Source: Psilocybe cubensis
Lineage: Eukaryota
Length of the DNA: 64,000 nucleotides
Assembly: GCA_017499595.2 (NCBI GenBank)
Contig: CM038999.1
Span: 3,286,001-3,350,000, forward strand
Direction of reading: 5' to 3'
Below, piece after piece: positions 26,131-53,533 of the stretch. Under the pieces are notes generated by a model. The model saw only the letters and a list, made by a program, of their open reading frames with translations. It searched no databases and had not been told where the DNA came from. The stretch's first letter is position 1; every line of letters begins with the position of its first letter. Both the position numbers and the translations under genes were made by a program.

Positions 26131-29100
26131 TTACTCGGGTTCAATCAACCCCAAAAACCCATACGACCAAAGTTGGATCGCATCAGACTCTACCCCGCTC
26201 GACAGTGCCGCTATATCCGCCACAGAAAACGTCTTTGTGCTCTGATCAAACGCATACGACCACACCTCGGAATAGATGTCTGTTCATTAAACATCCAGTC
26301 TATTTTTAGCACATGTTCGGCTACACATCCTCCCAAGAAAAGCCAAGCCACCCCAAAACGAGTGGCAGCATAGGAGAGAAGACTATCAGATAGACTGTGC
26401 AACTCACTATCAGAAGCACCGTTGATAGAGGCCCATAAGCGTGTCTGTGCATCCTGCAAGCTCTGCACGAGTTCTGCATCGCCGCACCAGGCCGGGGGTG
26501 GAGAAGGCAGTGGATTAATATCCACACTCGTTGTATTCGTTAGGCAGAATTTCAGCTGTCTTGCTAGTCCTCCGGCCATTAACGCTTGCTGGAACGACCT
26601 GAGCGACGGAGGTGACGTGTCATTTGTACCATAAGGGTAAATAGACGTTAGCGCTAGAATCCAGAGAAAGAGGTGACCAAACGTTACGCAGTTCGACTCA
26701 CCAAACAACTGTTCCATGATACGCTGTTCGGTCTAAAAGCTGTATATCGGCAGTGTTGGAATCATATGCTGGGTTGGCCACCACCATTCCAATGTTTGTC
26801 AAAAGACCTGCACAATATCTAGTATGCGATGGAGCACAATGGAAGACAAATTTACACAGCATACCTCGGGGGTAAGGCGTCAAAGCGTCAACCACACGCT
26901 GCAAAAATACCGCGCTCACGTTCGTGCCGTACATCAAATTGAATCCCAAATCCGAATTGAGGACCTACAGATTGATCGAACCGATTAATCAAAACACAGT
27001 AAGCGCGACCCTTCCAGTAAATCGCGCGATTCTCTGTAGAGCCAAATACAACGCCACCTTACTCACCTCAACTGGAGTTCCATCAGGCATCAACGATAGC
27101 GCGTAGAAGCTAACATTTCCCGTCGTCGCCGTCCCATTACCCAACAAACTGTCATCTAGGTCAACAGCTTGCACAAAGTTCTTAAGCCTCTGCTCCGCCG
27201 TATCAGCATCCACCACGACCTCAAACATGCCTGGCGCCTCGCTTTCCCACTTTTCCGCCATCTGCACAATATTCGTCGCACCGCCATCCACATCGAGATC
27301 TTGAAGGCTGAGAATCCCCGAGCGGGCGAGGCTATCTATTGCACGTAGGTTGGCTGGAACAAGCGCGACATTAACGTCGAATGGTATGGTGCCGAATCCG
27401 GTTCCGCCATTGCTGTCCCGCCAGTTTCCAACAGTCTCCCCTGGCCGGAACGCAAGCAATTGAGAAGATGTCGCTGGATTTGCAGTAAAGAATGGCAAAG
27501 CGCGGTTGACATTATAGGACGCGATCCTGATAACAAACAAACGTTATAACCTTTCGCGCAGAATGATGGTGGAGAAGGGCGCTCTCTTACCTGTTAATGA
27601 TATCCAGGTACGTTCCGTTCTGTAACGTTGCCTGCTTCGATAAAAATTGAGCAGATCGATTCTGTCCCTGAGGCAACTCTACAAAGTAGTGTTGCAGTGC
27701 AGGTAGGAGCAACAGGTCTGTTAATCGACATTTAAGATAATTTCATTGGATTGAATAGGCAAAAAAAATATATACCTGTATCAATCATCTATAGTAGTCT
27801 ATGTTAGCTGCATCATAATAGGAACAGTGAGAAGTACTATACTTTATAGTCATAAAACGGAGTGTTTCCAAGATCGGGTCTGCCATTTCCAATGTTGACC
27901 TGAATACGATAATTAGATAATTACCTCGATATAAACATACTGTTCAACGTACGAACGACGCATAATCCCCTGAGAGTATCCAATGTTATGAGAAATAACA
28001 ATTAACGAATATTTAGTATGAAGACGAACCAATTGTTTCCTCGTGGCACAAAGCACCAGTGCTATTGGCTCTTTCAATAACAGCACCAAGGGCATCTTCA
28101 ATGGCGCTTGGTGTGAGCAGCGGCATTAGCATCCGCAATGCGATAAGTGAATCCCGTCCAAAGTACTTCGAACATGAAGAAAATGGTCAAAATTCAGATA
28201 GATGGGTAGTGGGAGGACTAAACCTCACAGTTAAAAATCTCCATCCTCCCGCCGTGAACTTGTTCTGGAAAGTCAAGAACGAAACCTTACAATATCATGT
28301 TAGTGATTTGACCACATATACAAGGAAATAGAATATCAGGAAGGACCTACTTGCTCGGAAACATCTGCAGGTAAGTTTTGCAATGCAGTTTTAACACTAT
28401 CCGTCGCAGCATCAACAGGGCTCAAGAACAAGTCGCCTACATCCAGTCCCGCAAGGCTTGTCTCGTTCGTCACCACCTGTATGCGGACGTTGTATTTCGC
28501 GTCAACCGTCGGAGGTCTCATTCCAGCCACCGGTTGACGTTGGACAGTAGGTATAACAATGTTAATAACAGGAGAGGATTCATTTCGCGCGTCGACAGAG
28601 AATCTCGCAGAGCTTCCGGGTGGTACTGAGAGGTAGAGATCGACGGATTTGAACGTCTGGGCCGACGGCTTAGCTTTGAGAATGGTATTGTCAGTGGAGC
28701 TCAGGACGTCATGTGTTTCTGGAGATACAGATGTGCTGTTTATGTACTGCCTGTGGAGCCTGACCTCTGTCGGGGAATGAGATGCCAAGGTATAGTTAAA
28801 TATTTCGTGCATAGTCCCAGAGCCTTCGACGTAATCTTATGTTCGACATAGTTGATCTCGCTCAATTACAATGTCCACGCTCATCATTATTCGAAAGTCT
28901 CACCTCTTAAAGCTCGTACAGCACCAACAATTGTAACGCCTAAAGTCGCATTGGCGGTAAGCGTCATATCAGCCTGAATTCCGCGGTTTCCGTCCGCCAG
29001 GGAAACACTTTTCATCGAGCCATTCACCAGTTCCAGGTTGAGAGGAACCGAAGAGGGTTCTTTTTGGGGTAGGAAATAGACCAACGCTCCATTATTCCCT

Positions 29101-29348
29101 GCTGGAAGAGCCGCAACAAGACGTCGGGTAACGTTGTTACTGGCGGTGGTGCTCGTCAGCAGTAATTGGGCGGTCGTGATGTTATCCCGATAGAAATAGT
29201 TCTCGTTACTTCCACTTGTGACGTGAAATGTCGTGGCCGATACAAGAGGGGGGGATTTAGCAGCAGCGAACAGTAATACACCATCTCCAAGATAAAATTC
29301 CCGAGCAACGAGCGAATACACTAGGAAAAGTGCGGTAAGAATGCCCAT
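26131..29348 (-). CDS. Secreted uncharacterised six-hairpin glycosidase-like protein (glycogen-debranching-like FGRDS family)
   Basis: Hydrophobic N-terminus MGILTALFLVYSLVA (alternative ATG 29417). Spliced motifs KFTAGGWRFLTYFGRDSLIALRML, LCHEETIG, PFYDYKMIDTD, VGNWRDSNGGTGFGTIPFDVN, AYHGTVVWSFQQALMA, ESDAIQLWSYGFL..*. Confidence 0.72.
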
Positions 29349-31431
29349 GACAATCCAAAGGAAAAGTGGGCCTTTTTTCGACAACACCAAGTCATGCATA
29401 ATAAATATGCCCCCCATCGTGTGTTAAACATAGAAAAGAAGGTTGTCTAGAGGCATATGGAATGGAGCAGAACCTGGGATACCAAACCCGCTCGACGTCA
29501 AGCTGTTTTCCAGAAAGGCGGCCCGCCGTGCGCCATGACCCTATGGACACGCGGTTAACGAAACCCTTTGGCCATCGTGATCCACCGCCGAACCCGTATA
29601 ACAGATTCTATATTTAGTGCATTTGCGCAACTAAGTACGCGATGTAGGAATGAAGGCAGAGTTAGAGCAGAGAAAACCAAGAGGTGAGACGCGGATTCCA
29701 AGAACAAGAGCGTCGAAATTGACTTCCGGTCTAGCCAAATCCCAAGCAAAGTCCTTTTTCATGAACTGATGCAACCAGTCCAGCGCTGCATGTATACGTG
29801 GTCGAAAGAAGTGAAGAACGTTATGAGCCACGAGGTAGAACGAAGAAACGCACTTTGAGCGCAACTCAGTTTTCATCTGCAAAAAGGTCCGGGCCTCGGG
29901 AAAGTTGGTCGCCGGTTGGACCTTCTGAGTTTAAAAGGTTCAGAGTCCGAATGCCAACTTTATTGAAGTTGCGCACTTCAAGAAACAAACTTGCGACATT
30001 TTCTTCTGGACCGTGCTTAAGGGCTCCCTTACTGGTTTCTTCCTGCTATGACTAACGTACAATGGGCCTCACATATCCTATTCAAAACATGCTTAATCTC
30101 TCACTCGTTGGCAAGCTCGGAAATGGTACCAAAATCCCACATAGTATCATAAACCTGTTGGTTACCTTTGTTTCGTATCAATATGGTACCGTCCTCATGG
30201 TCTGTTGACTTCCAGGTTCTAACTTTCACACCCTCTTTGACTACGGATCTACAATACTTGAGCTCCGCCCGTATGTTACCAACATCAACCGCACACTGCT
30301 TGTCGGACCCAAGTTCCAGAGTACCATCCAGGTCTTTTCTGTCCTTTGCACCCTCAATTCTAAGCGAGTGACGTAGTATTTTGGGGTTAATTTTTCATAC
30401 TATAGCTTATTAGTACAAATTTTAGAAGGTATTCTAGATTCAGTCAGGTTACTCATCCGTCGGGACTGACAAAAAATTGAAATGTCACTTGGCCGTCTGT
30501 AAATGGTGAATTGCTGATTACTCCATGAAAGAACGATGACTGTCAACGTTTTAGGTGCAAATCACATAATTTACGAAAGTGATACTCGGCGACACTCGCA
30601 AATTTCCCGTGAAAGATGCGTAACAGTGGTGTATTAGCATTTCATCCACCGTTTTTACTGGTTTTTGTAACACTATTTCCGTTATATCTCGTCATTGCTT
30701 ACTATGCGTTCAGAATTTCAGCAACCCTCACGTAAATGTGGGGTCTGCATGACATTAGCGCATCATCATTATTTTTCTTGGACAAAGTAGAGAATACTGC
30801 TTGGCAGTCGAAAATTAATTATGGATTCAATTTGGACTTGAACGTTCTTTCACTTCAGTAAGCGGAAAAATCCGAATTTGTGTAAGGGACTGGAACTAGT
30901 CTTGTGTTCCAGGTCTACCAAGTTTATTAAGAGACCCAATTAAGAGGGATCCTGGCGCTATTAGGTGGTTGATCTGCACATCTCCGAGGTTATCAACCAA
31001 GGCGCCTGGGCACGAAGCTGAATGATTTACGACACGTTCCTTCTTCTCGAACGTTTCATAGATCACAGGACAGTCTCTAGCCTCCGCAGTGCTCCATCCG
31101 ATATTCAAAATCATAAGTTACTCCTCGTCGTGGGTAGACCTAAATTTAAAAAGTCATCTTTTGCTCTTTTGCCAAGTGATGGAATGAAAGCTTGTACAGG
31201 TCTTAAAGTCTCCCTATGTTCTAACCTTCAATATTTGGAGATAATAAACAACTCAAAGATACTTCGAGACTGCGATTTGACCGTCGCTTACTTGCTTGTG
31301 CTCAATGTGGGATAGCTTCACCCATTATACACGGATATGCAAATAAGCAGTCTGACGTGAGCAATGCTTTCAGCTTCAAGTGACCTCGAATTCTGACCTC
31401 CGAACACTTTATCTTGGCATAGCCGAATGCC

Positions 31432-31438
31432 TATAAAT
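31432..31438 (+). promoter_or_regulatory. TATA box of Cys-rich peptide gene 1
   Basis: TATAAAT about 55 bp before the first predicted 5'-UTR intron donor. Confidence 0.5.
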
Positions 31439-31660
31439 ACTCAAGATACTTTGTCTACACCCTCATCGAAAGGTCAGCCTCATCAAAGGTGAGCTTCCTG
31501 ACTTTTCTTACACAGTTTGACGTTAACTTTTGACACTTTATGTCTGTTTTAGAGCATTGTCTAAAACGCGACTTGTACATTGAAACCCAAGTACGTCACT
31601 CGTTCACTCCAAGACTCTGAGAACTCATTCATGAAAACCTTTTCCTTAGGTTTCTACACG

Positions 31661-31969
31661 ATGAAATCAATCTTTGCCAACATCCTTTTGCTCTCCTCCA
31701 TCGTTGTGAGCTCTAACGCTTTGGTGACCCGTCAAGACGTATGCGCGACCGTTTGCCGCCCAGTAAAGCCGGTCTGTAAGCCCGGACAACAAGCCACCGG
31801 AGTAGAAGGCTGCTGGGGATGCTGCGTGGATATTGTTCCGGCAGCTCTGACACCTGATGATCCGCCCACTGTTTGCACCGCTGTATGCCGCGAAGAAAAG
31901 CCTGTATGCCCAGAGGGTGAGGCCCCAACCGGACAGGAAGGATGCTGGGGATGCTGTGTTGCGGTGTAG
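31661..31969 (+). CDS. Small secreted cysteine-rich protein 1 (102 aa; two C-x3-C-x6-C-x11-CWGCC modules)
   Basis: MKSIFANILLLSSIVVSSNA signal, then CATVCRPVKPVCKPGQQATGVEGCWGCC and CTAVCREEKPVCPEGEAPTGQEGCWGCC. Confidence 0.9.
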   Translation: MKSIFANILLLSSIVVSSNALVTRQDVCATVCRPVKPVCKPGQQATGVEGCWGCCVDIVPAALTPDDPPTVCTAVCREEKPVCPEGEAPTGQEGCWGCCVAV

Positions 31970-32543
31970 ATAGTGAGCAGAGCGGGAGTGGGGGGGGCTA
32001 AACAAATCTCATGTTGAAGAACTCGAATTTACTTTCATTCCAAAAACTCTTCTACGCAAAGTAGTTAGCCCCAAAGCCACGACTTGAATATTCTGTAAAT
32101 AAATATCCATTGCCTACACACATCACCGGGGATTCAGTCCTCAGATTAGAATAAATGTTCCACTCAGAGCGTACCGAAAGTTTCGGATAAGATGAAACTA
32201 CATCAAATGAACGCTCGGAAAATCTGTATTAGAATGCAGGCTTTGGTTGTCATGAAGAGACAATGTCATTGCCATTTTGATCTCCATTCGGTGGGCAAGA
32301 ATACTTAAAAACAGGCATCGAGAAGAGGAGAACATCCCATAGAAAACGCTTCTGGCTCTTTGGTGAGTACAGCTACTTTCAAGGACAAGTGCCTTTTTTT
32401 ATTCAGCTTTACGCAGAGTACCAACTTCAGCGCCTAATCACCAAGACTGTTTGCATAGTGGGTGTTCTGATTTATCCGAAACGAGAAATTACGCACTGAC
32501 ACTGTTTTTCATAGTCGTATAGAACCGTCGAACACCTGAGAAA

Positions 32544-32723
32544 ATGAAGTTTTTTACAGTCGCAATAGTAGCTATAACATTCCTGACAAGCGCCCACGCC
32601 TCCGTAACTACACTTAGGCCTTGCGGGGTGGCTTGTGGGGAGGATAAACCCGACTGTTTTCCAGGAGAGGCACCGACTGGAGGACCTGGGTGTTGGGGAT
32701 GTTGCGAGCCCATACGTAGCTAA
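32544..32723 (+). CDS. Small secreted cysteine-rich protein 2 (59 aa; one module; below ORF-track cutoff)
   Basis: MKFFTVAIVAITFLTSAHASVTTLRPCGVACGEDKPDCFPGEAPTGGPGCWGCCEPIRS*, translated by hand. Confidence 0.9.
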   Translation: MKFFTVAIVAITFLTSAHASVTTLRPCGVACGEDKPDCFPGEAPTGGPGCWGCCEPIRS

Positions 32724-33490
32724 ATGCAATAACTGTGTCCCATAATTCATTCTACCGACTTATCTTCCGACTCGACCTGAAGATCCGTGAGAAATTGAAC
32801 GCAACGATTAGACCTACAGTATCATTCTTTAATTCATGAACTTCATAAATAGTAGTGATACATGGGAACTGTTTTAAGGCTCGTAGAGTATACTAAATTG
32901 ATAGAAATAACTACAATAATTGGATGTCTACCTCTTGGAGCCCATTGACACGGCAAGCATCTAACAAGGCGTCATATCAAACGACAATCAAACATTTTTC
33001 AACATCAAATAAATACCATTGAGTCTGTTTAATAATAAGCTCAGGTTATAGGACCTTAGTGTTGGAGGGGTCAATAGATTGAAATGAATGTTGGTATTTT
33101 TCTCATGCTAATTAGACACGAATGAAGTATTGTCAACGGAGATGAAATGAATTACAATATCAAATATTAAACACGGATATTTTGCTGGACTCTAGATATT
33201 GATCTAACAGAAATAGTAGACGTTCCTGGGCGGTCGCCAAAAATATCAATTGCAGTGTATAAATGAACGAAACGAGGTTTTTCTGGTTTTAATTCTCAAT
33301 CTAAGTCACCCATATCATTGTTCAGCGCAACAGGCCTACTGCCCTCATTTTGGTATGTGCTCATATGATTCACGGCAACAGTATACATTTACTATACACT
33401 TCTTCGTAGATTTCCATAAGAGTAACAAGAATAGTCAGAATGATTTTATAATTGACCTTGTTTGGCCATCCACTTACCAAAACCATAGAT

Positions 33491-33757
33491 ATGAAGGTCG
33501 TTTTTGCAATTGCCGTCATGGTACTATCGATTGTCGCTAGCACTCGTGCTGCCCAAGAGTGTCCAGATATATGCAGGGAGGTAAAGCCAACCTGTCCACC
33601 TGGGGAAGCACCAACTGGAGGAGATGGTTGCTGGGGATGTTGTAGGAAGATTTGTGGTTCGGCGTGTCTTCCTACCAAACCGTTCTGCCCGGAAGGAGAT
33701 GTAGTCGTTGGAACCACTGGCTGTTGGGACTGTTGTCCAGAATCTACCACAGTTTAA
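33491..33757 (+). CDS. Small secreted cysteine-rich protein 3 (88 aa; two modules)
   Basis: MKVVFAIAVMVLSIVASTRA signal, then CPDICREVKPTCPPGEAPTGGDGCWGCC and CGSACLPTKPFCPEGDVVVGTTGCWDCC. TATAAAT at 33258. Confidence 0.9.
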   Translation: MKVVFAIAVMVLSIVASTRAAQECPDICREVKPTCPPGEAPTGGDGCWGCCRKICGSACLPTKPFCPEGDVVVGTTGCWDCCPESTTV

Positions 33758-34362
33758 TTCGTCATGAACAGATGTAAACGTGGGACAACAAAATGTAGTT
33801 GCCACTTTAAAACAAATACACTTGATTTAAATCTTAGTCAATGCTATGAGAAATTCATACTGAATGACAGTGGTAATGAGGATATCAGGTCCTTACCAAA
33901 GATAGCGAAATAGTCCAAACCAGTAGAAACTCTCTATGTACAATGTGGTTATCGGGATTCAGCTAGCCATGTCGGCGTAGCCTGGACAATGGCGAAAAAT
34001 CCGCGGGGCTTAACAAACTTCCTAGCAGAGATTGGACGAATACATTTAAATGCATAGCATGTAACTTGTACATCACTATAGTTTCATATTATCATAACGA
34101 GAACAAGTTGGTCATCCATATAACAATAGGGACAAGGTAGAAAGGATAGCGCTTACTTCAGATGTATGACCTCTCGGAACGCCGTTAGCCACCAGTTGCG
34201 CCATGCTTTGGCTGAAACCTCAAATGTACAAGTGCCTACCACATGGAATTGATCAAATAGATAGGCGATGTATGACTATATACCCCTGTATAAAAGGCGC
34301 GTAAAACACAACAAAGTCTGCTCGTCGACACTCAAGCGATACACCTACAACTCATAACAACC

Positions 34363-36338
34363 ACGAAATATCTCGGAAACATTGTGTTGCTTTCCGCCTT
34401 GACTTGCCATTGTGGCGTGCTAGCAGCTGACTCCGGCGCAGATTCAACCAATGGATTGGTTGTGAATACTCAGCAAGGCCCTGTGTCCGGGTCAATGGCA
34501 ACTGCAAACGTCCGCCAATTTCTTGGTGTACCGTACGCTTCCGCAGGGCGTTGGGAGGCACCGACACTTCCGCTTAATCGTACCACAATTTTCAAAGCGA
34601 CAAAGTTCAGCGACGCATGCGTTCAGAATTTGGCCCCATCCAACTTGGAGTTCCTAAAACTGTCAGGAGGTCAAGGAATCGGTATTCCAGAGTCGGAAGA
34701 TTGCTTAACCGCCAACATATGGGTGCCTAGTCTCAACAGAAAGCAAAAGACCGCTGTGCTGATATGGATTCATGGTGGCGGGTTTCAGTGGGGAACAGTA
34801 TGCTCAATGTCTCACCATATCACCTGTTCTGCAGCTAATCCTATCTCCCAAGAGCAACCTTGCCATCTACAATGGCCAGAATTTTGTTCGCGACAACGAT
34901 GACATCGCCATAGTCACGTTCAACTACCGCTTGAACGTGTTTGGCCAGCCAAATGCACCCCAGCTTTTGAGCAAGACAAAATCGCAGAACTTTGGCTTAC
35001 TCGATATTGACGCTGCCATCCAATGGGTTCATACTAATATTGCTGCATTTGGAGGCGACCCTGAGCGCATCTCGTTGTTTGGCCAGAGCGCCGGGAGTAT
35101 GGCTGTGGATGCGTATTCGTTCATGCATCCAAACGATACAATTGTCAAAGGTGGCTTTGCCTTATTATATGCACGACCTGCAATCTGAAAATCTGTACTC
35201 AGGGACAATTCAAATGTCCGGAACGTGAGTGGACTTGAATAAGAATAGGACAGAAGTACCGATTCTGAAAAGTGTCATCCGTTGACCTTCTCAGCCTCAT
35301 ACAAGGCGATTCTCCAGGAGGGTTGGCGAATGCAACATATGAAGGCGACATTTGGAATAGTTTGGCAGAGAGCCTCAACTGTGGAAATGGCAAGTCCAAG
35401 TTCAATACTCAAACTTTTACTAAACTCCTACCTATTTTAGATCCCGATGACGCGCAGCTCGCCTGCATGAAAGCAGTTCCGTTTAGGACGTTGGAGGATG
35501 CTGTCATGAAATTTGGTGCCATTGTATTCAAAGCCTTTATAGATGGTGCTCAGTTTTCTCACCCAATTTTATAAGAAGAAACTGAAGTTGTGATGTTCCA
35601 TTGTAGATATCACCCTTTTCACTGATCTTCCACAGCGCATAGCATCTGGAAAGTTTTTGAAGGTGCCTTTGCTGTCGGGTAGTGTCCTGAACGAGAACGA
35701 CATATTTGTGGTTGCTGCTGAACTCACTACCCCTCCTAGTATTGTTTTCCCCTTGTTAACGGAGGTAGCTGCAGATCTCCAAACGCAGGTACGCGGATTT
35801 TTATTCCCTGATGTGTGGGTGCAGCTCATTTGTTTGGGCAGGTTGCTTTCACTTGTCCAGCTGGAACCAATGCCCAAGATCGGCTCAACGTCAATTTACC
35901 TGTCTGGAGATATCAATATCAAGGTGTGAAAAGAGCGATCGATTTACAACATTTAATTGACGACAAGTTTCTCTGCCAGCTGTATTTTCCGACCTCTCCA
36001 CGCGTCCAGAGTTGAGGTCCTACCATCAGGCAGAAGTCCCCATCGTATTCGGCACCTACGATACAGCGATTTCCGCTGTGAAGTCTACTACCACAGAGGT
36101 AAATCTGTCCAAGTATATGCAGAAAGCTTGGGTAGCGTTTGCCAGAGATCCTGCGAATGGATTGACCAACTATGGCTGGCCAACCTACAACGCAACATCA
36201 GACAGCCTTGTGCAGCTCGGCGGACCAGCTAATCCATCCGGATTATCCCTCGGACAAGGCTCTTTGCTTGACCACACCTGCAATCATTCTGATGAATTGC
36301 TCACCTTTGCTATCCAACTATCTTCCAACTTCGCTTAG
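34363..36338 (+). CDS. Secreted type-B carboxylesterase, copy A (start codon appears to be ACG; possibly non-AUG or an incipient pseudogene)
   Basis: QFLGVPYA, SEDCLTANIW, WIHGGGF, FNYRLNVFG, NFGLLDIDAAIQWV, FGGDPERISLFGQSAG, catalytic Glu region GSVLNENDIF and His region RSYHQAEVP. TATAAAA at 34289. Confidence 0.85.
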
Positions 36339-46485: not shown

Positions 46486-49400
46486 TTAATCGATTACAAT
46501 GCTCCAATCCTCTTTGATCAAAACTCTAGGATCTTTGATCTCCAAGACACTAGGGCTTCCACCCTTCTTGTCGCTGGCGGCAACACCAGGGGTATACTCA
46601 TACACAAGCTCACCGCCGCCCTGCACTTTAACGCTGCGCGGCTTACTGCGCAGGCCCAACACCACTATTTTCTCCACACGGACATCTGCAACACTCTTCA
46701 CAAACTCGTTTGCCGGATTATAGGTCTTGAGCGCAACGCCGTCAACCGCTTCGTCTGGCTTCGCAGCAGCAAGATCCGCGCTTGAGATGCGCAGCCCGTG
46801 CTTGCCGTGCTCCTTCGCTGAGAACTCTCGCCAGATGAGGTCGCCCTGCATGTGGTTGTACGACTCGCCATCGTCGAGGTAGAGTTCGCCGCGCGCGCTG
46901 CCAGATTTGCTCAGTGCAATCTTGAGGGTGAATGGATCACGCTTCATGAGCGATGAGGCCCGCCTTGGGCGTTCGCGCGTGGCGAGAATGGAACCGCCGC
47001 GCAGGAAGAGGGGCAACTGGTGGAGGGCAGCAGGGACGGTGATTTCCTTTCCTTTGGCGGCGCCGCGGTAAGCTTGATTGGTAAGGTAGTCATAGTATAC
47101 CTAATCGTAGATTTAAGATTCGACGAGCGAGAGAAAGATATGAGTACATACTTCATCCTCAGCGAGGTAGACCTTCGCCTCTGTGGCTCCCTTTTCTGTG
47201 ACAGGTTTGACAAGTAATCCAGTTGATCCAATATAATATTGGTCGTCAATGTCGAAGCCAGCCTTATCCTTAGGGAACATAATGAACTGAGGCCTGATAA
47301 ATAAATCAGGAACATGACTTCGATAAAATGTATAATATGCAATTTACCTCAAGATTGGCATTCCAGTAACGGTTGTCTCGCGGAACGCGGTGTACCACAC
47401 AGGCAGCAAGGTGTAACGAAGGCGTAGAATATCCTTGACAATCGACTTGTAAGGCTCATCCAACAGGAACGGTTCGCGACGCTTAGTGTCGATGTGGGCG
47501 TGAGCTCTGAAGAACGGAGCAAACGCGCCAACTTGATACCACCTAACTAGCATCTCCGGCTCAGGGTTTCCAAAGAAACCACCAACGTCAGCTGGAATGC
47601 ACAACCAAAGCGTTAGAACCAGAAGCCAAAGCAGGCCAGATTATGTACATACATCCTGCAAAGCTGAGGCCTCCTAGGCCGTTAGCCAACACCATCTTTA
47701 TCCCAACGGCCATGTGCTCCCATGTACCAAGATTGTCTCCAGTCCACATCGCGCCAAAGCGTTGAGATCCTGCGAAGAATGCACGAGTCAAGACGAAGGG
47801 CCTCATTGGAGGGTTTGTTCGTTCTGCCACTGCTTGGTAGGTCAAATTGGACTGGTATGACACATCAGAAAGCATACATTTAGTAGCTGCCGCAAATTAC
47901 TCACGTAGAGCATACCGTTGATGTTGTGGACATCACGGTGTTCCCATCCTCCATAATGGATATTGTCCTTTGGCATCGTAATTTCGGGGCCGTTGAAGAC
48001 GGAAGGCTGTAATCCATTAAACCTGAGGTCAACGGTGAAGAAATCGGTCTATGAAAATGGATTTACCTCATTCATGTCATTCCAGATATGAATGTCAGTT
48101 GTGCTCTTAGTCCAGGTCCATTTGTCTGGATTGCCTTCGGGTTTGAAGATACCCTTCCACCAGTCCCATGAGGCAGGGTTGAAGAAATCTGTCCAAGAAC
48201 TGCTTCCAGGCCAACACCATCCCTCATATTCGCCCTCTCCAGATTTTGGCTTAACAAGGATGCCAAGTTCGGAAGCTTGTTTGAATGCAGGGTAGTTATC
48301 ATCCCTCTTGAGATGGGGATCGACAATGACGACCATCTGAAAAGGAAAATTTAGTGACGAGCGGGTGAGAGTTGTTTGTTCGCTGACCTTTCTGCCATTA
48401 GCGGCAACATCATTGGTCATCTCAACAGGGTCGGGGAAGTTCTTCTCCTTCCACATGAAGTACTCGTGATCTTCAGCATACTCAATATCGAGCCAGAAAA
48501 CATCGACTGGCATATCCTCCTCATCGAAACGTTTCTGGACTGTACGAACATCATCACTGCTGACATAGTTCCAACGGCATTGATGATATCCCAAACTCCA
48601 GGCCGCGGGAAGAACTGGTGCCCCCGTAAGACGCGCATATTGCTTGAAGACGTCCTCCGCAGTGGGTCCTGGAAGGAGGAAAGTATCAAGAATACCAGAC
48701 TCGGATATCCAGTGAGTTTGGGTTGATTTGTCCGAAGCGTGAGAGACGTCGATCCAGGTTTCAGAGCCAACTACGTGGAACACGGCGACCGTCGAGTCGA
48801 CAGAGTGAGCGTGCATAAGAGGAATAGAGCCGTATAGAGAAACGGGAGAGGATGCGAGATATTCGAAAACGTCGGAATTGTATAGGCGATAGGGGTCCGA
48901 GAAGGTGGGGTCTTCGCCTGCAGTTGAAGGTAAAGCAAGGCGCGTGGCATGCTGGGGAATACCATAGACAGTTCCATGATTTGGGAAGTTAATGTCGAGA
49001 GACAAGGACTCAGGGCCTGTGTGGGGTCTTTAGCGAATCTCAACATAACGTCATTAATAGAGAGCGCACCCTTTGGCTTTGAATCTGTCCATGAAGAGAA
49101 AGTTTCTTCGAAGAGCGCATCCTCAGTTTCGCCCTCGAACCAGGCTGTGGGACGAGTCTTCACCTCGAGAACCTTCTGAGTTCCAGCTTCCTCTTCTGCA
49201 CTTTCTCCTTCAACAGGTTCTGGTTCCTCTGTTGAGGTTGGAGGCTCGACTTTATTGCGGAAGTGTTCCATGTGTAGTAGTCCATCCCCATTCAAAACGA
49301 TTTGTTCCTTTCCGTTACGAAGCAAAGATATCTGCAGAGGTTGGTGTTTGACGATGACCTCGAATTCTTTCTTCTGCCCATATGTGGCGCGTGTTGCTCC

Positions 49401-49805
49401 TTTCGACTTCGCCCATTTTATGTCCTCGCTGATCACAGGTTCCGCAATGAGTGCCCAAGATGCAGTCTCATCGTATCGTTTACGAAGACCCCCAACCTCA
49501 TCCATCCGCACTCGAACAACACCATCGTCTTGGATGCGAACCTCCAAACCGAAATTGATTTCTTCGTAGAGGCCCTTCACGGCTGCCGTAAATACAGCTT
49601 GGCTAGGAGAAATGTTGATGGAGTCCTCTTGAATGCGGTACGGCGAAACCCAAGACGACTTTGCTTCTTTGGCGCGTGCTGAGAGTGCGCGACCGCGCCT
49701 ACAGAATCCCGATTGCGAGCATGTCTTGAAATCGTGAGCCTTGAATGCCCAGGAATCGCTGACCAGTAGGAGTGCTACGGTGCCAAGGATAGACCAGGAC
49801 CGCAT
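46486..49805 (-). CDS. GLS2: ER glucosidase II alpha subunit (GH31)
   Basis: Signal plus [51 protein letters not shown], nucleophile motif [36 protein letters not shown]. Confidence 0.95.
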
Positions 49806-49916
49806 TTTAAGCGTATATCCCTCTGCCTATTCCTTAAATCTGCGGAGAGATAGAAAGTGGAGGGGTTCTAGTCAAAAGATTTATTGCGTTGGCAGTCGCC
49901 TACAGCTTTCGAGTGT

Positions 49917-49940
49917 CCACGTCGCGCACACCCACGTCGC
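49917..49940. promoter_or_regulatory. Tandem CCACGTCGC motifs, UPR-element-like, upstream of glucosidase II
   Basis: Identical 9-mers at 49917-49925 and 49932-49940, 112-135 bp upstream of the GLS2 ATG. CCACGT core of Hac1/XBP1-type bZIP sites. Confidence 0.45.
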
Positions 49941-50273
49941 AAATGGAGATATCTAGGTCATGTGATCATTCGGTTCACGCTCAGACTTGATTGCATTCTT
50001 TTCTTTTCTTTCGATGCCACAACTTGCCTCCAACCTCTATTTGACTTCAGTACACGTTTATGTTATCCGGTCATATCTGTCCCCCATCATCTTCTTGCGA
50101 GGAGGTAATGCATACCGAAAATCATTAATTACTTTACTTTACCTCCATAGGATGAACAAATTTCCCAGTAACTCCCTATCTATTCTAGTCCGCTATAAAT
50201 ATGTGGAAGGTGCAGAAGCATTCATCCAATTTGGTCTTCAAGGCATCCCCACACATACCCCACGAACCATTTT

Positions 50274-52630
50274 ATGGATTCAACCAAAGAAATTTCTTCT
50301 AGAAATGAAAAAGTCGTATCTTTATCAGAGAATCGTCTCAAACTGGACAACACAGGACTTCCGTTGATTCCACAACCAACGAATTCACCAATTGACCCTC
50401 TGAACTACCCAAATGTGTGTCTAATCCACTTGATCCGATAATAATACAAGGGAAATACATTTCTAATGCAATGCCTTTAGTGGTTGAAGTACACAATCCT
50501 GGCTCAAGTATCCTTTCTTGCTTTCTTATCCACGATGAATGTCGCCATCGTCAATCCGGCAGTCATTCTACTAGCCGAGGAGTTCAACCTGAAGCCAGTA
50601 ACTGCAACATATCAGACCACTGTCGCAATCGGTACAAGCGCACTGGGTCCACTTCTTCTTACTCCAATAGCAAATGTCTACGGTCGGCGACCAGCGTACC
50701 TGTTATCTGTATTTCTCGGCTTTGCATCTGCTGTTGGTTCAGCCAAGGCAACATCGTTTCGCACACTTATCGTTGCTCGAATATTCAATGGGATGGGCTC
50801 TTCGGCTGCTCTTGGACTAGGTGCTGGAACGGTGGTAGATCTCTTCTTTGAACACCATCGAGGCAGGGCAATGGGGATATTCGCTTTGATGTCCACGAAT
50901 GGTGCTCATTTAGCTCCCATTGTAGGTAGATATGCTTGCGTTGTCATCCGGCTAACACATGATTTTCTACGTCTCAAAGGTCGGTGGATACGTCGCACAG
51001 GCAAGAGGTTGGCGATGGACCTTTTGGGTTGGAGCAATTTTAAACGGCGCGTTCTTTGTCATGGCATGCATATTTATGCCGGAAACTATATTCGATCGAC
51101 CGAAAGAACGTAGCACCGATGAGAATGTGTTGGACGATCTCAAAGACAGTGAAGAGAGGATAGAGGATGCTATAACGGGTGACGTGTGCAAGGCGCCTCC
51201 AATGTCCCTAAAGACCTACATACGTCGGCTTTGGATATGGGATCTCGACAAACCTGCTACACGAAAAATAAAAGCAACTGACTTCCTCGTCAAACCGTTG
51301 AGCATGCTCAAATATCCTTCTGTGGCTTTTCCAGCGTTGTACTAGTAAGAGTTTCCTCCCCACTCGGTGCATTCGATTATAACGAAAATATCACCTAGCG
51401 CCGTGACGTATGGTTTCGCATCTATCGAACCTGCTCTCACAGTGGCGACATTATTCACCAAAATATATCACTTTGACACCATTAGAAACGGGTCAGCTTC
51501 GCTTTAATTCAAATTGCTCACTACATGCCTGATAAAAAACGCCACGACCTAGCCTGGCCAACGGCGTGAGTCTCCTGGTTGGAGCGTACGTGTTTACTTT
51601 CAAGTTCTGAGTTAAATGATATTCATACACCTGATAGGACATTGGGAGAACTGTGTTCAGGCCCTGTAACAGACGCCATGATGGCTCGTGCACGGCGGCA
51701 GGCTCTTATACGGGGTGAAACCGCCGCACCAGAGGTGCGCCTTCAAGGAATCTGGACAGGGGCCGTGACTGTCCCCCTTGGATTGCTCATGTATGTACTT
51801 TTTTGGAATATGTCAATGATATATCAATGACTAATTAAATGTTTAGATGCAAGTCATTCCGTTCCGAATGCGAATGTCAGAGATGATCTTAAACCCTGTT
51901 GTTAGATGGGTTAACAATCCACTTTTCAATTACCTTCATCGCGCCGTGCATAGGCATGGGTGCGTTAACTTTGCTTTTTTTGCGTAAAAATAAATTTTAA
52001 GTAACTCATGTTCGGCATCCACGACCTCCTTACCAGCGGTAGCCTGCTTTGGAAGTGAGAACCTTTGTTATTCGTGTCGGCTTTCATACTGAAACAGACA
52101 CCCAGTCCAAATCGTTACCTCTGTATGCTACACGTACAGCTGCAGCGATTGCTACCGCTCGAGAAGTAACGACGTCAGCCAATGCTTCAAGTATGTTACC
52201 CCATGGACGAGTTCAACTCACCCTCCGATCCTTACCAACTGCTCTGCAGCTTCTTTCGACAGGTGCTCGGCTTGACCTTGGGATTCTACTCGTGAGCGCT
52301 CTGCCACAGTATGACTTATTGTTGTAATGCTCATTTTGAACAGAATCCCTTTCGGTGAAAAGGTCACATTTCTTTCTGGGTACCAATCTTGACTTTTGAA
52401 GAGACTTATTTTTGGGAATTTTTCCGTTTCCTTCGTCAGATCGGCTTCGAATGGTCCTTCACCTTTTTTGCTGGTATATGGTCCGTCCTTACTTATCTCA
52501 TTCGTATACGAGTCGTTTCTTATGCTTCCCATTGTAAAGTATCGTCTCTTTTTTACCGATTGTTTTCCTCATGTATCGAGGAGCAAAATGGAGGCAATAT
52601 CTTGGTAACCCGGATTCCAAGTCGGAGTAG
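50274..52630 (+). CDS. MFS transporter (DHA1/HOL1-like), many short exons
   Basis: LIPQPTNSPIDPLNYPNWLK, motif A PIANVYGRRPAY, ARIFNG, DLFFEHHRGRAMG, GWRWTFW, MPETIF, PEVRL. Ends IVFLMYRGAKWRQYLGNPDSKSE*. Confidence 0.9.
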
Positions 52631-53218
52631 GGCTGCAGGGAAGTTTGACACTGGTGGTATCGTCATCCACAGTCAGCCACCATTATTCCGATCGAGCTTG
52701 TATGACCGATGTATTTTTGAGAGAGCAGGTTGTCGTTATCCTTATTTTCTCTCTAATTGTTTGGAGCGAAATGAGGGACGAGCTATGACGTTCGGCAAGT
52801 AGTTTGACAGGGTGTCAGTGAATTTTAAGCAAGTATGGGCGTGAGCAGGGGTCATTCGATGATCGGTGAAACTGTCACTTTTGTCAACTCCAAGTTTCAA
52901 TAATTCCACAACCATCGTAACTGATGCCAATTAATACATGCGCAGCATGTCAGCAGAACTAGCTTTGAGACCATAAAAGCCTACAAGGTAGGCCAATTTT
53001 AAGGCATAGACGATACTGAACATTGTCCTCGACAGGTGCCCTTTCTGTCTACGACTCGTCTTTTAGTAGATAACACGCTAACTAATATTTATAGCTCACT
53101 ACAATTTGTACACACATTTTCGCGGCCAGATTGAACATCTTTTACATGTAAGCGCTGATTCTAGTGCTTCCACCATCTAATTAGCAACTAATCCCTGATT
53201 AACCAGCTATCACCACCA

Positions 53219-53533
53219 ATGAAGCTACTCACCACATCTACCATCCTCCTCGCATCTCTCCTACACGCCTCCGCCGTGCCTCAAATCAGAGTGACCTCAC
53301 CAATAGGCGTCGCCTGCTCCACCATCGTCTGCCAACCAGAGACCTTACCAGCCTGTCCCACTGGCTTTGCACCCAGGGTCTTTGGCGATGGGTGCACGGG
53401 GTGCTGCACGGTGCAGGTCCAGGATTGCAAGGACGTCTGTTTGGCTGAGAAGCCTTCGTGCCCTGCGGGACAGGTTCCCCTTGGGAGCGAGGGGTGCTGG
53501 GGGTGCTGTGTTACTATTGCTCAGACCGCTTGA
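53219..53533 (+). CDS. Small secreted cysteine-rich protein 4 (104 aa; two modules, the first divergent)
   Basis: MKLLTTSTILLASLLHASA signal, then CSTIVCQPETLPACPTGFAPRVFGDGCTGCC and CKDVCLAEKPSCPAGQVPLGSEGCWGCC. Confidence 0.9.
   Translation: MKLLTTSTILLASLLHASAVPQIRVTSPIGVACSTIVCQPETLPACPTGFAPRVFGDGCTGCCTVQVQDCKDVCLAEKPSCPAGQVPLGSEGCWGCCVTIAQTA

Follow-up and report, generated by a model that had tools for sequence, protein, structure and literature searches.

This study examined a 64,000-nucleotide stretch of Psilocybe cubensis DNA (contig CM038999.1; referred to as the window) and identified four genes whose small proteins carry seven copies of a six-cysteine module. The proteins belong to a family that, judging from sequence matches, is old and widespread in fungi and was already deposited in public records as unnamed proteins. 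The family is undescribed in the literature and libraries searched, and its cysteine framework is uncatalogued, although secreted disulfide-rich fungal mini-proteins are well known as a kind. By analogy with the plant Pin-II proteins, we propose that the modules may be secreted canonical serine-protease inhibitors with a C-x3-C reactive loop, and we assign this reading a probability of approximately 0.4.

Genes and motifs were counted in the six-frame translation of the window. Four genes with a signal-peptide-like start were located, three in tandem and the fourth approximately 20 kb away, each with one or two modules, as the sequence-only reading had described. Each protein opens with Met-Lys and a hydrophobic stretch according to a crude hydropathy measure, and the four proteins are presumably secreted. 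The claimed spacing C-x3-C-x6-C-x11-C-x2-CC, which spans 28 residues, was exact in six of the seven modules, and the first module of gene 4 deviated (x4, x7, x12, and x2). The exact pattern matched six times in the window and not once in any of 30 base shuffles. The proposed GCWGCC consensus was exact in five of the seven modules, the other two containing GCWDCC and GCTGCC. Among the 15 pairs formed by the six exact modules, 143 of 241 codon pairs encoding an identical residue differed synonymously, and differences at the third codon position (275) were approximately twofold those at the first (129) and second (135) positions. This excess of third-position and synonymous differences points to selection that kept the protein sequence of the modules. 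The exact sequences of the four proteins were absent from a collection of 15 billion proteins. A poly-cysteine motif match at 1643-1732 on the reverse strand was the complement of a CAG/CAA poly-glutamine tract and was discarded as false.

A profile of the four window proteins retrieved 51 relatives among 351 candidates, the module profile retrieved 118 cluster representatives (E <= 0.001) among 1.84 billion, and a third family search yielded 9 matches among 2,758. A single-sequence homologue search with gene 3 returned no candidate, whereas the alignment-based search succeeded. A complete module under a loose pattern was present in 142 of 162 proteins, with 1 to 7 modules each; the remaining 20 were truncated models, variants, or chance matches. 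The loop lengths were kept in most of the 240 distinct modules (x3 in 210, x6 in 225, x11 in 202, and x2 in 236). The exact modules (n = 164) fell into those ending in CWGCC (100), those ending in CWTCC (47), and others (17). Within the 100 CWGCC modules, Pro10 and Trp25 were invariant and Gly20 occurred in 99, while variation concentrated around C1-C2 and in the turns, which bears out the earlier description of a conserved scaffold with variable loops.

The named members belong to Basidiomycota, Ascomycota, Mucoromycota, and Zoopagomycota; this range rests on named matches, which are only part of all matches, such that absences from a taxon cannot be judged. CWGCC members occurred among agarics (Agaricus, Cyathus, Macrolepiota, Galerina, Gymnopilus, Agrocybe, Panaeolus, Psilocybe cyanescens, and others) and, outside them, in Aspergillus, Malbranchea, and Conidiobolus. 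CWTCC-type members were found in Fusarium, Ophiocordyceps, Trematosphaeria, Westerdykella, Pseudogymnoascus, Phlyctema, Aspergillus egyptiacus, Amanita rubescens, and Cunninghamella. Modules of three Aspergillus species matched module 2 of the window at 23-24 of 28 residues, compared with 9-14 of 28 for CWTCC-type ascomycete modules. This likeness between Aspergillus and mushroom modules may stem from an ancient division into two subtypes with patchy loss, from transfer, or from contamination. These Aspergillus modules are among P0011, P0020, P0021, and P0025, and the Conidiobolus member of the same subtype lies on a 48 kb contig. The P. cyanescens model P0065 (PPQ89004) fuses counterparts of gene 1 (N-terminal part, 73% identical) and gene 3 (C-terminal part, 74% identical), which indicates that the cluster is older than the species. 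Metagenome contigs contained at least 21 family loci among the matches listed (23 of 589 matched stretches), with three tandem family genes in one locus (L001) and two in another (L002).

The search of prokaryote genomes gave 204 pattern matches, of which the single one to pass tblastn was a chance reading frame lacking a module, and none of 145 pattern matches in viral contigs held a true member. The protein P0100, which is lipoprotein-like and bacterial-looking, carries related repeats in which the C-x6-C-x11-C core is retained, the first loop is longer, and the last cysteine is shifted (E 2e-7 in the module-profile search; profile probability 46%). It is a possible bacterial cousin of the family as judged by these repeats, and none of 86 matches was a locus encoding it. 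Deposited names of members were hypothetical, "small cysteine-rich protein" (Agaricus bisporus XP_006461502), or the automatic "pathogenicity protein" (Fusarium poae and F. sporotrichioides). Erroneous or automatic names were also noted within P0036 (EIT73800), P0017, P0031, P0034, and P0156, namely "multiple drug resistance protein," "4Fe-4S ferredoxin-type," "CFEM," and "Kazal-like." The family can now be defined by a fixed cysteine framework, two subtypes, and four phyla, whereas its public records are hypothetical, fused, or misnamed.

The family libraries were then compared with these proteins. No Pfam model reached its cutoff against the 4 window proteins, 30 relatives, or 49 alignment members; no NCBIfam model did so against 9 proteins; and the best match among PDB sequences (E 0.087) was unrelated. 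The hydrophobin, cerato-platanin, and CBM1 models had no Pfam match at cutoff, with one cerato-platanin row at E 0.33. The mismatch with these families and with CSab defensins, whose framework the module does not follow, was thus upheld, as was the statement that the module is assignable to no named family, with no significant match in Pfam, NCBIfam, PDB, or the fold searches described below. The notion of a local novel system, by contrast, was not supported: the family is not multi-part, shows no functional link to its neighbors, and is spread among fungi. Motif searches of the literature returned only primer or chance matches, most subscription journals and sequence figures lying outside their reach, and topic searches found no description of the family. 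Six family accessions appeared in no paper in the literature search. CWGCC and CWTCC were absent from the supplements of PMC7329392, PMC6339444, and PMC6461984 and from 12 of the 13 supplementary files of PMC8715435. The accessible parts of PMC3689799, PMC8715435, PMC5094085, and PMC4659598 concern subjects other than this family.

Cysteine loss was analyzed in 333 profile-matched stretches, 232 of which had all six cysteines. C2 and C4 were jointly replaced in four modules, two belonging to P0072 and two, which are near-duplicates, to P0123. This paired loss supports a C2-C4 disulfide and disfavors a TIL-like C3-C4 pairing, which was set aside. C1 and C6 were both missing from one decayed module of P0149, and C6 was lost alone in three further modules. 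In variants ending in C-x3-CC, as well as in the P0100 repeats, the fourth residue after C4 is still a cysteine, a pattern suggestive of C3-C6 and C1-C5 pairing. Each module probably forms three disulfides, as the sequence-only reading had supposed; C2-C4 is supported by the paired loss, and the other two bonds are presumed.

The structure of the module was predicted using AlphaFold. In the model of module 2 (mean predicted local distance difference test score [pLDDT], 83), the N-terminal part is extended, the residue following C2 forms a bridge, and a hairpin lies between C3 and C6, its second strand bearing C4-W-G-C5-C6; no central helix is predicted. In the gene 1 protein, both modules were predicted to fold separately at a pLDDT of approximately 90, joined by a linker of low confidence, and module 1 showed a short N-terminal helix. 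Foldseek searches with the module returned nothing at E <= 0.001 and 36 weak rows, and VIA-align returned nothing at Z >= 2 among 48,161 chains or 34 re-aligned Foldseek rows. The top ESM Atlas feature scores (0.81-0.82) belonged to an Ascomycota "Pathogenicity protein family" cluster, followed by a viral MGF 110 family, and serve as leads only; ESM Atlas structure rows had template modeling (TM) scores <= 0.40. Two Pandoravirus "Kazal-like" fold rows (E 5.7) were not counted as evidence. This lack of a fold match does not show that the fold is new; the search tools detect tiny domains poorly.

These predictions bear on the possibility that the module is a defensin-like scaffold with trans-defensin-type connectivity that binds a target other than a serine protease, such as a glycosidase, a carboxypeptidase, a receptor, or an ion channel of grazers, competitors, or hosts. 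The CC pair in the last strand, the small antiparallel sheet, and the short N-terminal helix of module 1 would fit such a scaffold, as would the supported C2-C4 bond together with the C3-C6 and C1-C5 pairing suggested by the variants. Alpha- and beta-defensins were the class met most often among the 36 weak Foldseek rows, with 12 of them; however, these had E values of 3.3-9.9, query TM scores of 0.20-0.40, and root-mean-square deviations of 3.9-6.2 A, and VIA-align supported none of them. The joint loss of C1 and C6 in P0149 also counts against this reading. The hosts of the family presumably include decomposers and mycorrhizal fungi as well as insect pathogens, which we count against such a binder. 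The automatic "pathogenicity" name on the Fusarium relatives would favor it, but the origin of this label was not traced in the literature checked, including 12 of the 13 supplementary files of PMC8715435. Overall, we consider a defensin-like binder unlikely.

According to the proposed inhibitor mechanism, the proteins would be exported as disulfide-stapled repeat mini-proteins, with each 28-residue module forming an independent short beta-hairpin onto which an N-terminal segment is tied. Anchored by a disulfide at each end, the C1-x3-C2 segment would occupy the active site of a protease, with its middle residue as P1. Repeats and paralogues with different loops would broaden the range of enzymes blocked, and the proteases targeted could come from competing microbes, grazing animals, or the fungus itself. 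Given the P1 residues in the window (Thr, Ala, Val, Asp, Ser, and Asp), elastase- or subtilisin-type enzymes would be likelier targets than trypsin. Inhibition, the protease target, and the two bonds other than C2-C4 are proposals, and the fold is a prediction.

Several observations are consistent with this mechanism. The first loop has the x3 length in 210 of 240 modules, and its residues vary on a fixed scaffold. After 8 of the 162 proteins were dropped as spurious, the loop CTLEC was found in 6 of 154 family proteins and CTKEC in 1 of 154. Glu at P1' occurred only with Thr at P2 (9/9 among 225 loops; 6/6 among 174 dereplicated loops), and the pair held within the Gly20 subtype (4/4, p = 0.004), the pair having been selected ahead of the test and shared descent not having been corrected for. 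A Thr-Glu pair of this kind braces canonical inhibitor loops. P4, the residue before C1, was hydrophobic or Pro in 144 of the 174 loops; P2 was Leu in 51, Thr in 28, and Pro in 13; and P1 was basic (Lys or Arg) in 40 and either Leu or Met in 17. The paired losses of C2 with C4 and of C1 with C6, the non-helical first loop and independently folding repeats predicted by AlphaFold, the recurrence of tandem repeats and tandem genes in the family, and the neutral-to-acidic character of the modules were also counted for the inhibitor reading.

Other evidence weighs against inhibition. A textbook reactive loop was absent from the seven loops of the window, and P1 was mostly Ala (49/174) and often Asp (20/174) but never Phe, Tyr, or Trp, a composition that an ordinary exposed or helical site could show as well. 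P1' was mostly Val or Ile, which may be structural. The loops CPRNC, CTLNC, and CPRYC were absent from the 154 family proteins, and the length of the first loop differed from x3 in 30 of 240 modules, including module 6 of the window. The Thr-Glu pair ranked 43rd of 7,637 residue pairs and failed correction over all pairs, and its three Aspergillus-like cases were near neighbors. Pin-II, TIL, and serine-protease-inhibitor entries were absent from the Foldseek rows of the module, with follistatin/SPARC rows at E 8, and inhibitor Pfam models (Pin-II and TIL) matched none of the proteins searched with Pfam. A C1-C6 bond is also contested by the shifted last cysteines of the variants, which suggest C1-C5 and C3-C6. 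Among the roles that the sequence-only reading had listed (inhibitor, toxin, antimicrobial, or effector), an inhibitor is the best-supported lead, still unproven, whereas a cationic antimicrobial is disfavored by charge. The wider proposal is more doubtful: fungi of at least four phyla would possess an overlooked class of secreted canonical serine-protease inhibitors, built on a 28-residue three-disulfide unit with a Pin-II-type C-x3-C loop, a scaffold approximately half the size, and no solved structural relative, and the CWGCC subtype may have passed from one to the other of mushrooms and Aspergillus and may be related to a bacterial lipoprotein.

Charge also bears on a further alternative, that the proteins act as antimicrobial peptides directed at membranes or lipid II, such as plectasin or copsin, or as extracellular free-thiol metal chelators. 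The proteins are small, cysteine-rich, and probably secreted, and automatic UniRef 4Fe-4S names were attached to three relatives. Coprinopsis cinerea induces 12-cysteine defensin-like proteins upon bacterial contact (PMC6461984). However, five of the six exact window modules were acidic (-1 to -3), and the family mean charge was -1.2 for CWGCC modules (n = 100) and 0.0 for CWTCC modules (n = 47), whereas antibacterial defensins are usually cationic (PMC5234102). The neutral-to-acidic modules thus disfavor membrane- or lipid II-directed defensin action, the departure from the CSab framework adds to this, and the signal peptides and paired cysteine loss favor disulfides over metal thiolates. We regard this alternative as improbable.

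Alternatively, the modules could act as multivalent binders of carbohydrates or surfaces, located in the cell wall or on the hyphae, with the fixed tryptophan as the platform. Trp25 is nearly invariant, the linkers between repeats are rich in Pro and Thr, and in P0076 the two modules are followed by a stalk rich in Thr and by a hydrophobic tail at the C-terminus resembling a glycosylphosphatidylinositol-anchor signal. CWTCC modules average 3.6 aromatic residues, but the CWGCC modules to which the window type belongs average 1.3, which is few for a sugar platform, and the tryptophan may merely pack on the invariant proline. No fusion of a module with an enzyme was found among the 162 proteins, no Pfam domain reached the cutoff in 30 relatives, and the only carbohydrate-binding match was one CBM1 Foldseek row at E 9.9. 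Surface binding is therefore, in our judgment, a distinctly unlikely role.

Four of five listed sequencing runs were used to examine transcription of genes 1-3; none of the five is recorded as RNA, and X1 and X5, both from one study, are presumed to be RNA. The sequence-only reading had let function depend on transcripts, and a spliced contig of gene 1 was found in X1: it is 500 bases long, spans 31460-32082, and skips two GT..AG introns in the 5' untranslated region (UTR). The second intron removes an upstream in-frame ATG at 31631, which identifies 31661 as the start of gene 1. Gene 1 is thus very probably transcribed and spliced, as observed in one study. Gene 2 had no contig in X1 or X5, and the X1 coverage of gene 3 consisted of an antisense contig only; neither result indicates silence. 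Signals for TATA boxes and 5'-UTR introns resembling those of gene 1 appear from the sequence to precede genes 2-4. For the 40 of 57 allelic differences covered, alleles altered eight residues and one silent codon across genes 1-3 with all cysteines kept, and two of these changes alter C-x3-C loops, those belonging to genes 1 and 3. The X3 allele of gene 2 had seven coding substitutions and five residue changes, with all six cysteines kept. The X3 sequence differed from the window at many positions in 32508-32860, with several downstream indels including an 18-base insertion, which exceeds the differences at genes 1 and 3; the region around gene 2 in X3 is possibly a divergent haplotype.

The antisense RNA at gene 3 has two GT..AG introns on the minus strand and covers most of the gene. 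No convincing open reading frame was seen in it, and its start, approximately 215 bases ahead of a carboxylesterase contig, possibly reflects a bidirectional promoter. Such a transcript suggests regulation, which would suit secreted signaling ligands for development or self/non-self recognition that are freed as single modules by processing. The proteins are small, stable, and paralogue-rich, and in half of the CWGCC-type precursors (24/48) Pro-Gln or Arg-Gln directly precedes the first module, an arrangement that would leave the N-terminus blocked. Nevertheless, the window proteins have no dibasic sites between modules, no receptor gene lies near the module genes, and two surveys of Kex2-processed repeat proteins (KEPs; PMC7329392 and PMC6339444) did not contain the motif in their supplements. 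We consider a signaling role to be highly unlikely.

The window DNA is fungal, with intron-split genes, and Rfam returned nothing for 30000-35000. Three tandem type-B carboxylesterase genes (PF00135; 34294-42303) lie directly downstream of the cluster; a functional link to them was rejected, no homologue being found beside relatives in 22 loci, most of which are short. A GH31 glucosidase gene lies divergent from gene 4 (46486-53533), separated from it in the window by an MFS transporter, and in two metagenome loci (L004 and L005) a family gene was likewise divergent from a GH31 glucosidase gene. A subtilase gene (PF00082; 23849-25550, minus strand) lies approximately 6 kb upstream of the cluster; we take it to be a conserved vacuolar type, probably not a linked target. 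Other genes on the minus strand encode a multi-exon membrane-anchored protein (26989-29423; no Pfam match in the two exons tested) and a fungal glucuronoyl esterase (PF22244; 55021-56535) that also has a Ser/Thr linker and the beginning of a cellulose-binding-like module. The features of the module genes are listed in Table 1.

Table 1. Positions of the module genes and associated features in the window
Feature	Position	Strand	Description
TATAAA box of gene 1	31432..31437	+	28 bases 5' of the first transcript-contig base (31460)
5'-UTR intron 1, gene 1	31489..31552	+	GT..AG; spliced out in X1 contig, retained in X2 and X3
5'-UTR intron 2, gene 1	31591..31649	+	GT..AG; spliced out in X1 contig, retained in X2 and X3
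Gene 1 coding sequence	31661..31969	+	102 aa: putative signal peptide, short propeptide (Arg before Gln at its end), two modules, Pro/Thr/Asp linker
Module 1 (gene 1)	31742..31825	+	Loop CATVC; allele with CTTVC in runs X5, X2, and X3
Module 2 (gene 1)	31874..31957	+	Loop CTAVC; module used for AlphaFold
Upstream intron signals, gene 2	32363-32514	+	Putative
Gene 2 coding sequence	32544..32723	+	59 aa: putative signal peptide and one module (32622-32705, loop CGVAC)
TATAAA upstream of gene 3	33258	+	Sequence match
Gene 3 coding sequence	33491..33757	+	88 aa: putative signal peptide and two closely spaced modules
Gene 3 modules	33560-33643; 33653-33736	+	Loops CPDIC and CGSAC, respectively; exact spacing
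Spliced antisense transcript over gene 3	33512..34041	-	Introns 33744-33805 and 33844-33896; one contig, one run
Gene 4 coding sequence	53219..53533	+	104 aa: putative signal peptide and two modules
Gene 4 modules	53315-53407; 53426-53509	+	Divergent (loop CSTIVC) and canonical (loop CKDVC), respectively; six-frame scan

Small secreted cysteine-rich proteins constitute a large, mostly unexplained share of fungal secretomes. The known mushroom protease inhibitors are mostly cytoplasmic beta-trefoil proteins. If inhibition is true, the family would add a class of secreted disulfide-rich inhibitors to fungal defense and competition and would provide a very small natural scaffold that has converged on, or is remotely akin to, plant Pin-II. 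The modules are short enough for synthesis, and the inhibitor hypothesis is thus cheap to test.

We compared the module with known systems. XP_006461502, PPQ89004, and the Fusarium "pathogenicity protein" are true family members under generic or automatic names. The module is not a member of the TIL, CSab, copsin-like, or KEP groups. KEPs differ in the dibasic sites that the window proteins lack between modules. The CSab (cis) defensin framework is C...C-x3-C...C...C-x1-C (PMC5234102), whereas in the fungal module C-x3-C comes first, the end is C-x2-CC, and no central helix is predicted. Like the C. cinerea copsin and defensin-like peptides, the proteins are fungal, cysteine-rich, and probably secreted, occur as clusters of paralogues, and have an N-terminal Gln (PMC6461984). 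The TIL domain (MEROPS I8) is found in secreted serine-protease inhibitors with an exposed reactive loop and has ten cysteines in five bonds (bioRxiv 10.1101/2024.10.04.616518), compared with six cysteines here, and the module had no Pfam match to it.

Fungal defensins are described as cis-type only in the accessible part of PMC8877149. Similar to trans-defensins (alpha-, beta-, and big defensins), the module has six cysteines, a small predicted beta-sheet whose last strand holds a CC pair, and a probable C2-C4 bond; unlike them, it is not cationic and is arranged as repeats, and the structural similarity was insignificant (TM <= 0.40, no Z >= 2). The trans-defensin connectivity is 1-5, 2-4, 3-6 in beta-defensins and 1-6, 2-4, 3-5 in alpha-defensins. 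The TIL domain has a C-x3-C loop and a bonded C-x11-C stretch, which would correspond to C3-C4 here, whereas the paired loss favors C2-C4.

Pin-II proteins (Pot II, Pfam PF02428) constitute MEROPS family I20, and the spacing of their first six cysteines is, we assume, similar to that of the fungal module. The module is not a Pin-II member, given its six cysteines and the lack of a Pfam or fold match. A Pin-II repeat has approximately 50 residues and eight cysteines in four disulfides (PMC8188708, PMC3073943, PMC2259423), compared with six cysteines in 28 residues here. Two of the three Pin-II strands come from the H-fragment (PMC2259423), whereas the fungal hairpin is predicted between C3 and C6. 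The Pin-II fold, a three-stranded sheet opposite the loop, had no entry among 36 and 33 Foldseek matches and none at Z >= 2 in VIA-align, and no sequence match was found. The Pin-II reaction center comprises the five residues C-x3-C, tied by C1-C6 and C2-C4, with CTLEC and CTKEC as natural loops (PMC3073943), while CPRNC, CTLNC, and CPRYC are the commonest loops (PMC8188708). Pin-II precursors are tandem repeats (PMC2259423) with a conserved Cys/Gly/Pro scaffold and a variable P1 (PMC2259423, PMC8188708). The potato inhibitor Pi7C lost the C1/C6 pair (PMC3073943), as the P0149 module did. The fungal proteins thus resemble Pin-II in being probably secreted tandem repeats, in a C-x3-C loop that would be tied at both cysteines, in the C2-C4 bond supported here by paired loss, in the loops CTLEC and CTKEC common to both, and in a variable loop carried on a fixed Cys/Gly/Pro scaffold.

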